Virus record (IMG/VR): IMGVR_UViG_2534681772_000013
Length of the DNA stretch: 8,882 nt
Origin: a virus
Taxonomy: Duplodnaviria > Heunggongvirae > Uroviricota > Caudoviricetes
Reading direction: 5' to 3' (one strand)
The notes under the pieces were generated by a model. The model was not told the origin of the DNA. It searched no databases and saw nothing but the letters and a program-made list of their open reading frames with translations. The translations under genes were made by a program, and so were the position numbers. Shown one piece after another: positions 1,094 through 8,882 of the stretch (the first letter of the stretch is position 1; each line of letters opens with the position of its first letter).

Positions 1094-1232
1094 CAGCCGC
1101 TCCTTATGTTTATTGACACGACTCATCGACTTCTTATTGATTTCATCAGCTTCTTCTTTGCATTTATCTTCTATATATTTCGATAGTAAATAGTCATATA
1201 ACTCTTTTTTTGTAGGTTTTTTATTTCCATAG

Positions 1233-2259: not shown

Positions 2260-2570
2260 TTAGCCGGGCTGTGTGCCAGTCTTGCGGGATTTTTGAGAAG
2301 ACGATGTGTTTTCTGGCCCATCAGGGGAGAGAGAGGGACTGATCTGCCCTGCAGCCTCATTTGTTTTTCCCGTCATAAGCCATATAGTGTATTTTTCGAA
2401 ATCCTTAGAATTAATTACGCGATCAACAACGCTTAAACCAACCTCTCTTTTACCGCTCTCATAATTCTTTATAGTTCCGAGATTTATCCCAGTAACATCA
2501 GCAAACTCAGCTTGAGTTAACCCTTCACTTTTCCGTATCTCTTTCAGTTTTTTTCGTACCCACTTGACAT
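2260..2570 (-). pseudogene. C: P2 C-type immunity repressor (XRE-family HTH), interrupted by a 1-nt frameshift in an A7 homopolymer
   Basis: ATG at 2568-2570 reads MSSGYEKN then stops. Shifting by 1 nt at the A7 run (plus T-run 2548-2554) gives MSSGYEKKLKEIRKSEGLTQAEFADVTGINLGTIKNYESGKREVGLSVVDRVINSKDFEKYTIWLMTGKTNEAAGQISPSLSPDGPENTSSSQKSRKTGTQPG (about 103 aa). This has a clear HTH and, from memory, a P2 C-like C-terminal tail. Position and orientation relative to int match P2. Confidence 0.55.
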
Positions 2571-2954: not shown

Positions 2955-3293
2955 ATGCTGAAGCAACGCCGTAATTTTTTTACCGGAACGGAACGCCACG
3001 CTAACCGTTTCGCTACCAGTGCATCACGTAGTAACTCCCGCTACAGCCTGAGCGAGACACACGCAACACCGGATGGTCACCCCGTAAAACAAATTGGTGA
3101 ACACACTTGGCTGATTGAGAAAGCTGGAATCGTGATCCACAAATGCCCACGCAATCCGTTTACCGGAAACCGCATTTTTGCATTGAGCTGTGGCGACAAT
3201 CAGTTCGGGCAGGATTTCACATTATACGAAGCACTTCGCACGGTTGATCGTCTGCTTCGCGGGCAAAATTTTATTAAACAGGCTGATTTATAA
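2955..3293 (+). CDS. Hypothetical early protein
   Basis: 112-aa ORF with a good SD (GAGGTG 7 nt upstream of the ATG at 2955); same strand and tight spacing with neighbours. No recognisable domain. Confidence 0.5.
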   Translation: MLKQRRNFFTGTERHANRFATSASRSNSRYSLSETHATPDGHPVKQIGEHTWLIEKAGIVIHKCPRNPFTGNRIFALSCGDNQFGQDFTLYEALRTVDRLLRGQNFIKQADL

Positions 3294-3608: not shown

Positions 3609-3619
3609 TGGATTTGCCC

Positions 3620-4525
3620 CTATATTTCCAGACATCTGTTATCACTTAACCCATTACAAGCCCGCTGCCGCAGATATTCCCGTGGCGAGCGATAACCCAG
3701 CGCACTATGCGGATGCCATTCGTTATAATGCTCGAACGCCTCTGCAAGGTTCTTTGCTGCCGTTAACCCGTCTGGTTTGGGCATGATACTGATGTAGTCA
3801 CGCTTTATCGTTTTCACGAAGCTCTCTGCTATTCCGTTACTCTCCGGACTCCGCACCGCCGTGTTCTTCGGTTCAAGTCCCAACATCCGGGCGAACTGGC
3901 GTGTTTCATTAGCCCGGTAGCATGAACCATTATCCGTCAGCCACTCCACTGGAGACGACGGAAGATCGTTGCCGAAGCGGCGTTCCACCGCTCCCAGCAT
4001 GACGTCCTGTACTGTTTCACTGTTGAAGCCGCCGGTAGTGACCGCCCAGTGCAGTGCCTCACGATCACAGCAGTCCAGCGCGAACGTGACACGCAGTCTC
4101 TCTCCGTTATCACAGCAGAACTCGAACCCGTCAGAGCACCATCGCTGATTGCTTTCTTTCACGGCCACTCTGCCTGTATGTGCCCGTTTCGATGGCGGTA
4201 CAGCAGGTTTTCGCTCAAGCAACAGCGCATTCTGGCGCATGATCCGGTAAACACGTTTGGCATTGATCGCAGGCATACCATCAAGTTCTGCCTGTCTGCG
4301 AAGCAGCGCCCATACCCGACGATAACCATACGTGGGCAGCTCTCCGATAACATGGTGTATACGGAGAAGCACATCCGTATCATCAGTGTGACGACTGCGG
4401 CGGCCATCCATCCAGTCATCGGTTCGTCTGAGAATGACGTGCAACTGCGCACGCGACACCCGGAGACAACGGCTGACTAAGCTTACTCCCCATCCCCGGG
4501 CAATAAGGGCGCGTGCGCTATCCAC
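3620..4525 (-). CDS. insD: IS2 transposase OrfB (DDE integrase domain)
   Basis: 301-aa translation matches IS2 InsD as recalled ([34 protein letters not shown] ... [14 protein letters not shown]). Confidence 0.93.
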
Positions 4526-4848
4526 TTTTTTGCCCGTCCATATTCAACGGCTTCTTTGAGGAGTTCATTTTCCATCGTTTTCTTGCCGAGCAGGCGCTGG
4601 AGTTCTTTAATCTGCTTCATGGCGGCAGCAAGTTCAGAGGCAGGAACAACCTGTTCTCCGGCGGCGACAGCAGTAAGACTTCCTTCCTGGTATTGCTTAC
4701 GCCAGAGAAATAACTGGCTGGCTGCTACACCATGTTGCCGGGCAACGAGGGAGACCGTCATCCCCGGTTCAAAGCTCTGCTGAACAATTGCGATCTTTTC
4801 CTGTGTGGTACGCCGTCTGCGTTTCTCCGGCCCTAAGACATCAATCAT
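4483..4848 (-). CDS. insC: IS2 transposase OrfA (HTH)
   Basis: Translation from the internal ATG at 4846-4848 is [56 protein letters not shown]... (121 aa). The track's longer 136-aa start lies in the IS2 terminal region and is not the native start. Confidence 0.9.
4506..4512 (-). other. IS2 programmed -1 ribosomal frameshift heptamer A-AAA-AAG (produces the InsCD fusion transposase)
   Basis: Minus-strand GCA-AAA-AAG-TGG in the insC frame, located in the insC/insD overlap, as is typical for the IS3 family. Confidence 0.7.
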
Positions 4849-4938
4849 CTGTTCTCCAATGACTAGTCTAAAAACTAGTATTAAGACTATCACTTATTTA
4901 AGTGATACTGGTTGTCTGGAGATTCAGGGGGGCAGTCT

Positions 4939-5181
4939 ATGGGCAAAGAATATAAAACTCTCATTAACAAAGCACTTGAGCGTTTTTATTTTCGCTTAAG
5001 TGCATCAGGCGCTCATGCTGAACGTGCGGCCCGTGACTCATTGACCAGAGCAATCCGAAGTCTGTATGACGTGGCTTTTTACGCTGATGATCTGGATGCA
5101 CTTAACGAACTTTCCGAGCTGATCTGTGCCGCAGAATGCGGGGAACATATTGAACCGTATAAGCTGGGAAATATCGCATGA
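4939..5181 (+). CDS. Hypothetical early protein whose start codon is split by the IS2 insertion
   Basis: ATG-GGC-AAA-GAA... encodes MGKEYKTLINKALERFYFRLSASGAHAERAARDSLTRAIRSLYDVAFYADDLDALNELSELICAAECGEHIEPYKLGNIA (80 aa). The ATG is rebuilt from the terminal A of IS2 plus the TG of the duplication; the original RBS and ATG (3591-3605) are now 1.3 kb upstream. Confidence 0.45.
   Translation: MGKEYKTLINKALERFYFRLSASGAHAERAARDSLTRAIRSLYDVAFYADDLDALNELSELICAAECGEHIEPYKLGNIA
4940..4944. repeat. IS2 target-site duplication, right copy (TGGGC)
   Basis: Identical to 3604-3608. Confidence 0.8.
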
Positions 5182-6290: not shown

Positions 6291-6577
6291 GCACCATCAA
6301 CCACCAGAAGCTACGCGAACTGGCATTTGCCCTGCAACGAATGGCAACGCCTCAAAAATTACTGGCATTTCGCGCAATGCTCTCGCCGTCTGCTGTGCTG
6401 GCACTGCTGAATGAGCTGGAGCACGCCAGAACCACGGCTCCTGCCATTCGCCTGACGCTCCATCATGAAATCGCTGATTTCTGCGCGACGTTGGAGGCGC
6501 CGGGCGAACCGGAAACGCCGGAAGCAATACAGCAAGAGCTGCTGCAACGCATTGACAAGGTTTTTGATTTTTTCTGA
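6287..6577 (+). CDS. Hypothetical protein, possibly Ead/Ea22-like
   Basis: 96-aa ORF with an ATGA start overlap. The motif SPSAVLALLNELEHARTTA resembles the conserved region of Ead/Ea22-like phage proteins as I recall it (weak). Confidence 0.5.
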   Translation: MSTINHQKLRELAFALQRMATPQKLLAFRAMLSPSAVLALLNELEHARTTAPAIRLTLHHEIADFCATLEAPGEPETPEAIQQELLQRIDKVFDFF

Positions 6578-6708
6578 ACCAGTAAGAAACCAGAACATGC
6601 ACACACAAAAAAAACCGCTTGCCATGCCGCAATCAGTCAGGTTACATTTCCGCTGCACCTCATAAAACGGGTGCCGGGATTTCCACCCCGCTGACAACTA
6701 CAGCGCAC

Positions 6709-6729
6709 AACCGCGCCAGCGGTTTTTTT
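6709..6729 (+). terminator. Putative intrinsic terminator within the non-coding gap
   Basis: AACCGC-GCCA-GCGGTT stem-loop followed by a T7 run (6723-6729). Confidence 0.45.
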
Positions 6730-6908
6730 GTGCGTACTGTATCGCCACGTCTTTTTCGCACACGAATTATGGTGGGGCGTACGGGGCCGACTTCGGTCGG
6801 GCCGGGTTCTGTAGTTGCCGGTTGTGGAAACCCTGTACGTCTCACCACCCCGAGTTTTCCACCTCTGGATGGTGAGTTTTCAAAACTTGCAACTACAGAG
6901 GCCACACC

Positions 6909-7139
6909 ATGGCAAACCGCAAACAGCACCGCGCTATCGCGGAGCGTCGTCACATCCAGACTGAAATCAACCGCAGACTTTTCCGCGCATCACGCGTCGC
7001 GCAAATCATGCACATCAATATGCTGCATGAGCGCAGCCACGCACTATCAAACATCTATTCCGCCGCTGTTTTCAGCTATCTGGCGGATGATCTGCACGAG
7101 CTTCAACAGCTCATCCAGCAGCAAAACAAACTCCATTAA
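6909..7139 (+). CDS. Hypothetical small basic protein
   Basis: 76-aa ORF with AGAGG SD 8 nt upstream. Its composition is sensible, unlike the overlapping 198-aa track ORF. Confidence 0.5.
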   Translation: MANRKQHRAIAERRHIQTEINRRLFRASRVAQIMHINMLHERSHALSNIYSAAVFSYLADDLHELQQLIQQQNKLH

Positions 7140-7583: not shown

Positions 7584-8882
7584 ATGACGGCAGAGTACAT
7601 CAGGGACTGGCAACAACCGCGCCACGCAGTGGGGCGTGAAGGAACGGGGATCCCCGCTCCTGAATCCGCGCTTTCCTCCTGGCTGGATGCCTACCGGGCA
7701 GAGAACGAGCGCCGCCAGGAAATGGCTGATGCGGCGTTCTCCGCCACGCCGCTGGGCAACCTGATTAATAAAAGCCTGGACGCACAGGAAAAACAGGACA
7801 AAACCATCACACTGGCAGGAGACGCCAGAAAACAGGCACGCGGCGCGGTGGATGAAGCCATGGCCTCGCTGCGCCTGCTGCCGTCCTATCTGCGCGATCC
7901 GCTTATTCGCCACCTCTCCTTCCTTCGCAAAAAACAGGAAGCCGATCGCCGGAAAGGCAAAAAGAGCTGGCAGGCGGAACGCTATGCACGCGGAACCCTG
8001 CGCAAAATATTCGAACGTCTGGATCGCACTGACGGACGCTGGCTGACACCGGGTTATCGCTCCCTTGCCGGACGCGAACGCCTGGACGATTTGCTTTACC
8101 TGCCGCAGCTCAACAAACACCAGATACAGACGCTGGCCACCATGACGGCAGCGATGTTCAGCAGCACCTTCGAAAAACTCTGCGATGGCTTTGGCGCGAC
8201 TGATGGCGAACTGACCATGGATGTATCGCTGAAGGCGTATCAGATGCTGGCCCGCATGGCGTTACACCTGCACGCTATGCCTCCACATTATGACGCACTG
8301 ACAACAGATAAAGACCGGAGGAACGAACCGGACACAGAGCTGCTGCCGGGCGCAATCCTTCGCCTGACCTGTGCGGAATGGTGGAAACGCAAACTGTGGC
8401 TGTTACGTTGCGAGTGGAGAGAAGAACAACTCCGCGCCGCCTGTCTGGTTTCCAGAAAAACATCGCCCTATCTGAGCCAGGACGCGTTAAGCGAGTTTCG
8501 CGCACAGCGCGAGAAAACACGCGATTTCCTGAAAAGTTTCATGCTGGAAAACGAAGACGGGTTCACGATTGATCTCGAGACAGTGTATTACGCGGGAGTA
8601 AGTAACCCGGTTCACCGTAAGGCAGAAATGATGGCCACCATGAAGGGACTGGAACTTCTGGCCGAAGCCCGTGGCGACAGAGCGGTGTTTCTGACTGTCA
8701 CCTGCCCGTCAAAATACCACGCAACAACAGAGAACGGTCATCCGAATCCCAAATGGAACGGGGCCACCATGCGCGACTCCAGCGATTACCTGGTTAACAC
8801 GTTTTTTTGCGGCGGTCCGCAAGAAACTGAACCGCGACGGCCTGCGCTGGTATGGCATCCGCACGGTGGAGCCTCACCATGA
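7584..8882 (+). CDS. A: P2 gpA-family rolling-circle replication initiator, frameshifted at a T7 run and truncated by the window end
   Basis: The 432-aa frame-0 translation ends ...NTFFCGGPQETEPRRPALVWHPHGGASP. After the T-run 8811-8817 the +1 frame reads AAVRKKLNRDGLRWYGIRTVEPHH, which matches the conserved gpA-family motif as I recall it, and stays open to the window end. A T6 run would give one continuous ORF. Confidence 0.8.
   Translation: MTAEYIRDWQQPRHAVGREGTGIPAPESALSSWLDAYRAENERRQEMADAAFSATPLGNLINKSLDAQEKQDKTITLAGDARKQARGAVDEAMASLRLLPSYLRDPLIRHLSFLRKKQEADRRKGKKSWQAERYARGTLRKIFERLDRTDGRWLTPGYRSLAGRERLDDLLYLPQLNKHQIQTLATMTAAMFSSTFEKLCDGFGATDGELTMDVSLKAYQMLARMALHLHAMPPHYDALTTDKDRRNEPDTELLPGAILRLTCAEWWKRKLWLLRCEWREEQLRAACLVSRKTSPYLSQDALSEFRAQREKTRDFLKSFMLENEDGFTIDLETVYYAGVSNPVHRKAEMMATMKGLELLAEARGDRAVFLTVTCPSKYHATTENGHPNPKWNGATMRDSSDYLVNTFFCGGPQETEPRRPALVWHPHGGASP

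Follow-up and report, generated by a model that had tools for sequence, protein, structure and literature searches.

The gene at the 3' end of the stretch of DNA analysed here (8,882 nucleotides, called the window throughout) breaks off at a short run of T residues, and the locus raises the question of whether the break occurred in the cell or in the sequence record. The first-pass annotation had described a gpA-type replication gene interrupted by one base at a homopolymer, and had left the cause undecided between sequencing error and decay of a cryptic prophage.

The window forms the left arm of a P88-like prophage (Xuanwuvirus, P2 family) adjoining btuC in the E. coli draft genome GCA_000250335.2, and its base 1 directly follows the btuC start codon. 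The same btuC-adjacent site is occupied in TW10590, O103:H2 12009, O157:H7 FRIK944, E275a and E300082, which makes it a common integration site of this phage group. The gene under study belongs to the early operon of this Peduoviridae (P2-family) genome and is located downstream of the C repressor/cox switch. The gene order of the window matches that of P88 and TW10590 (integrase, HTH repressor, cox-like, DUF4761, DUF4754, MarR-like, derepression, a 121-aa ORF and then gpA) and parallels that of P2. The features discussed below are listed in Table 1.

Table 1. Positions, strands and properties of the features of the window
Feature	Position	Strand	Remark
5' part of gpA-type (Phage_GPA, HUH rolling-circle) replication endonuclease gene	7584..8882	+	432-aa product as recorded
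gpA continuation in +1 frame (AAVRKKLNRDGLRWYGIRTVEPHH)	8809..8882	+	leads to HUH motif in the 43 nt past the window
T7 homopolymer in gpA (TW10590 T6)	8802..8808	+	frameshift site; one T above the T6 of every intact relative
AAGAAA	8818..8823	+	AAAAAA in all relatives examined other than the three sister drafts
T6 run (TW10590 T7)	1217..1222	-	within codons 1-5 of a hypothetical 166-aa gene, called as 120 aa
T7 run, read on the + strand (TW10590 T8)	2548..2554	-	codons 6-8 of the HTH immunity repressor
T6 run (TW10590 T7)	6568..6573	+	close to the 3' terminus of a 99-aa gene, called as 96 aa
A8 run (TW10590 A7)	6607..6614	+	intergenic
IS2	3609..4938	-	1330 bp, reverse orientation; minus-strand ORFs 3620-4525 and 4483-4893

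The DNA between 7584 and 8882 shares 98.8% identity with the gene annotated 'replication protein' in P88 (Xuanwuvirus, Peduoviridae) and 99.6% with the one annotated 'replication endonuclease' in TW10590; of 5426 complete E. coli genomes, 1340 have a match to this stretch. Both TW10590 and P88 carry gpA as one 2823-nt frame encoding 940 aa, followed next by parM-like genes. The window departs from these two relatives in having T7 instead of T6 and in the presence of an IS2 upstream in the early operon, and from TW10590 in four substitutions.

Analysis of the reading frames agreed with the first-pass description of a nonsense tail in one frame and an open, motif-bearing frame next to it. The recorded ORF reads SSDYLVNTFF and then continues into a 24-aa out-of-frame tail, CGGPQETEPRRPALVWHPHGGASP, which ends exactly where the window does. 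Shifted by one base (+1), the frame encodes FFAAVRKKLNRDGLRWYGIRTVEPHH and contains no stop up to the end of the window. The 432-aa product, looked up as an exact sequence, occurs in a single contig, AIHG01000006.1 (GCA_000250335.2, 209.5 kb), the source of the window. This contig ends 43 nt past the window; following the +1 frame downstream, a check that had been suggested earlier, showed that it stays open through these 43 nt, to the end of the contig, and encodes DGTVHWHMMVFAHPE, which is the HUH motif. The metal-binding motif is thus present in the record, with EPHH at the end of the window and DGTVHWHMMVF in the next 43 nt; it aligns with EPHHDGTPHWHMMLF of P2, and the annotated start lies in another frame.

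The profile comparison places the break at the same point. Residues 179-407 of the ORF match positions 1-224 of the 321 positions of the Pfam profile PF05840 (Phage_GPA; E = 2.5e-83), so that the window gene belongs to this family by profile match, and the match ends exactly at the T-run; an intact homologue matches positions 1-321 (E = 1.7e-130). The switch from gpA to the +1 frame at the T-run is far beyond chance.

The P2 gene A protein, an HUH initiator of 761 aa that nicks at ori, aligned with the intact P88-type protein at 31% identity over 647 aa (E = 4e-80). The two have in common the metal-binding motif VEPHHDGT.HWHMM, and Y450 and Y454 of P2 correspond to Y491 and Y495 of the P88-type protein. 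The Y-x3-Y tyrosines of P2 gpA are catalytic. The P88-type protein differs from P2 gpA in its length of 940 aa, its longer N-terminus and its long C-terminal extension; the record of the window differs from P2 gpA in being in frame solely before the HUH motif. Judged by its sequence, the gene is a standard P88-like, P2-family gpA rolling-circle replication initiator, and its earlier identification as gpA-type is borne out by both the PF05840 match and the P2 gpA alignment. The position of the Y-x3-Y pair falls past the ends of the window and of the source contig, and in the TW10590 gene the pair is Y491/Y495. Since the HUH motif and the tyrosine pair both come after codon 408, the recorded 432-aa product could not nick DNA.

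Alignment of the window with TW10590 and P88 revealed a single extra T in the window, as expected from a one-base interruption at a homopolymer, and this T breaks the 940-aa ORF at codon 408. The run had been placed at 8811-8817; it does lie within the interval annotated for this feature (8790-8882), but at 8802-8808, nine bases away. When one T was deleted, the translation equalled the intact TW10590 gpA at 446 of 447 residues, the sole change being S215T. The 39 residues past the run are 100% identical, so that no decay is seen downstream of the frameshift.

The normal length of the run was established from independent loci. T6, followed by GCGGCGGTCCGCAAAAAACTG or a near variant, was found in 17 of 17 independent loci outside the source contig and the two sister drafts described below; these include P88, O103:H2 12009, O157:H7 FRIK944, E. 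albertii NBRC 107761 and ten contigs that were selected solely by an identical upstream 121-aa protein. The called gpA is 940 aa long in all ten of these contigs, and also at the annotated TW10590, P88 and O103:H2 12009 loci. Alignment to intact gpA homologues, another check proposed with the first-pass annotation, thus gave T6 and a single 940-aa frame throughout. Homologues that genuinely terminate at this position were not encountered: the intact relatives run to 940 aa.

A 58-nt query across the run was compared with 1294 complete E. coli records; as none of these fell into the band of at least 99% identity, none carries T7 in these flanks. The exact T7 string was absent from the metagenome contig collection as well. 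The sole species-representative genome with the exact stretch is that of E. albertii, where the run is T6. The AAGAAA at 8818-8823 is a second anomaly, 10 nt past the T-run and synonymous in the +1 frame; the equivalent sequence in the sister draft AIHF is AAAAAAAG.

The extra T in gpA is one of several run-length differences. When a 1330-bp insertion is left out of account, identity between the window and the TW10590 prophage is 99.8-99.9%, and the two differ by five indels and four substitutions. All five indels are changes of one base in A/T runs of 6-8, three of them contractions and two expansions; with the 1330-bp insertion set aside, no indel outside a homopolymer was found in the window against TW10590. 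Runs of at least six bases were discordant in 5 of 18 cases in the window, in both directions. For each site, every other complete genome alignable there was compared and all sided with TW10590, so that the window and its source contig carry the odd allele at five of five sites against 3-6 mutually agreeing independent complete genomes. The first-pass report of two homopolymer indels in essential genes was right in that such indels are real in the record, but they number five and not two. The frameshift it described in the repressor corresponds to a one-base change in the run at codons 6-8, which merely shifts the called start (95 aa against 103 aa) and leaves the HTH domain intact.

The discrepancies at 1217 and 2548 are common to the window and the sister draft AIHH, whereas those at 6568 and 6607 are private to the window assembly. 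The substitutions relative to TW10590 are located at 8226, 8729, 8747 and 8823, with none in the first 8.2 kb, and three of the four, all in gpA, are silent in the repaired frame.

All four substitutions cluster in the last 660 nt before the contig end, and in the sister drafts, too, substitutions are concentrated in gpA. The three sister contigs all end inside gpA or in the parM-like gene directly after it. The substitution cluster could represent a recombination mosaic, or an admixture of reads from another, related prophage close to a contig break induced by a repeat.

A look-up with another protein of the window located the same prophage at btuC in AIHF01000015 and AIHH01000035, which belong to drafts with accessions neighbouring AIHG. 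AIHF, AIHG and AIHH are probably the DEC13A, B and C drafts of the DEC collection of 2012. The chromosomal flanks of AIHF01000015 and AIHH01000035 differ from TW10590 by 0 and 1 substitutions, respectively, in approximately 9.8 kb. The T-run of gpA has a different length in each draft: T6 in AIHF, T5 in AIHH and T7 in AIHG, the draft of the window. In AIHF, the A6 run located 12 nt past the T-run of gpA contains an inserted AG, and the gene has two more one-base insertions. The called gpA pieces are accordingly 415, 223 and 273 aa in AIHF, 414 and 487 aa in AIHH, and 432 aa in AIHG. Three near-identical strains thus show three different gpA defects within 30 nt, none of which occurs in any finished genome, and to judge from this pattern the defects look like consensus errors in a low-complexity stretch and not like descent with mutation.

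Private run-length changes were also found elsewhere in the sister drafts. AIHF has lost one base in a chromosomal intergenic T7 run (reference position 3245) and one in a phage T7 run (reference position 12380), and AIHH one base in another chromosomal intergenic T7 run (reference position 4322). Since two of these runs are chromosomal and intergenic, the run-length discrepancy is not confined to the prophage.

The 1330-bp insertion is an IS2 flanked by duplicated target DNA (5 bp, TGGGC); it lies at the start codon of DUF4754 (gene at 4939-5181), whose ATG is rebuilt by the end of the element together with the duplication. The element is 100% identical to the IS2 of several finished genomes, and no homopolymer error was found within it by this comparison; a G6 run near its end is, given this identity, a natural variant and not an error. 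The IS2 is missing at this site from TW10590 and from both sister drafts, which identifies it as a real, strain-specific event. The element comes between the early promoter region and the early genes further downstream, gpA included, on which it is probably polar. This copy of the prophage shows no other solid sign of real damage, and the insertion, which the first-pass annotation of the gpA interruption does not mention, makes relaxed selection on gpA plausible. A different IS2-family element, 95.6% identical to that of the window, was observed in AIHF between nlpC and ydiV (AIHF01000015, locus L008, positions 12368-13697); at that place no such element is found in the source contig or in TW10590.

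Taken together, these comparisons make it likely that the frameshift in gpA was produced by sequencing or assembly and not in the cell. The extra T would mean that the draft consensus miscalled the length of a homopolymer, an error of the type made by flow-based or other homopolymer-sensitive sequencing, and the true gene would have T6 and encode an intact protein of approximately 940 aa. Such a miscall would be made worse at 8802-8808 by the closeness of the site to the contig end. The discrepancies of the window resemble draft homopolymer miscalls in being changes of one base in runs of at least six, in both directions, private to assemblies of close relatives and found in no finished genome; they are unlike plain draft miscalls in that those of the source contig cluster in the prophage. 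Among runs of at least six bases in the source contig, 0 of 14 are discordant in the 9.8-kb chromosomal flank, whereas the prophage has 5 discordant runs out of 15 (Fisher p = 0.042), and this contrast goes in the direction expected of prophage-specific relaxed selection. When the three drafts were pooled and runs of at least seven bases considered, the values were 2 of 20 in the chromosomal flank and 7 of 24 in the prophage (p = 0.15). With no discrepant run in the flank of the source contig itself, the argument for a genome-wide error rests on the sister drafts.

The clustering in the prophage is one of the observations that would fit a real and very recent +1 slippage, by which gpA became a pseudogene in a decaying, IS2-crippled prophage. 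Homopolymer slippage is the commonest natural indel mechanism, the IS2 with its target duplication is exclusive to the copy of this strain, and the two changes in common with AIHH, at 1217 and 2548, could be inherited mutations rather than systematic undercalls. The product of such a gene, the recorded 432 aa, would be devoid of the HUH motif and the catalytic tyrosines. We nevertheless regard this reading as unlikely: five homopolymer indels with zero substitutions over the first 8.2 kb form an unnatural mutation spectrum, the runs change in both directions, the T7 allele occurs in none of the 1294 complete records, the sister drafts combine T5, T6 and T7 at the same run with private changes in chromosomal intergenic runs, and the gene shows no decay downstream of the shift, most of its substitutions being silent once the frame is repaired. 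Between the two causes that the first-pass annotation had left open, error is accordingly the one favoured, and decay is disfavoured by the five one-base indels, by the lengths of the run in the sister drafts and by the intact downstream sequence. The break in gpA most likely stems from faulty base calling in an old draft genome, and would then not be a biological feature.

The three run lengths on record in three related strains could also be taken to mean that the T-run is functional, either as a recoding site (+1 ribosomal slippage on UUU UUU U, or RNA polymerase slippage) or as a T5/T6/T7 switch of replication competence. On the letters alone, a tRNA-Phe that slips by +1 on UUU_UUU_U would be able to re-pair perfectly. 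All intact relatives, though, use one frame with T6, so that the family has no need for recoding; a tract of 6-7 nt is short for efficient transcriptional slippage or phase variation; and the length variants are limited to one draft series, which itself has run-length discrepancies elsewhere. Recoding or switching at the run is extremely improbable, a low rating that follows from the two-frame arrangement being conserved in no homologue. It is likewise very improbable that the T-tract and the nearby A-tract form a hypermutable stretch of gpA that switches replication competence, with T7 giving residual full-length protein through +1 slippage. Programmed frameshifting and transcriptional slippage as such were ruled out, as every homologue has T6 and a single 940-aa frame.

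These results call for caution in the annotation of older drafts, where 'pseudogenes' caused by homopolymers do not amount to prophage decay unless reads support them. Should the T7 be real, a single prophage gene would have been inactivated very recently in a single strain, which is an ordinary event of a well-known kind. Neither the error reading nor the real-mutation reading raises a new biological question.

Two structured RNAs were identified in the window upstream of gpA by Rfam, both above the gathering score: an isrK Hfq-binding RNA at 6655-6729 (plus strand, 63.6 bits) and a C4 antisense RNA at 6765-6852 (plus strand, 80.5 bits). They stand in tandem directly upstream of the gene for the 76-aa 'Derepression' protein (PF25738), located at 6909-7139. 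Some RefSeq genomes have the isrK/C4 stretch annotated as a pseudogene for an incomplete 'ash family protein'. The tandem looks like an antisense control module of the P1/P7 immI type in a P2-family prophage.
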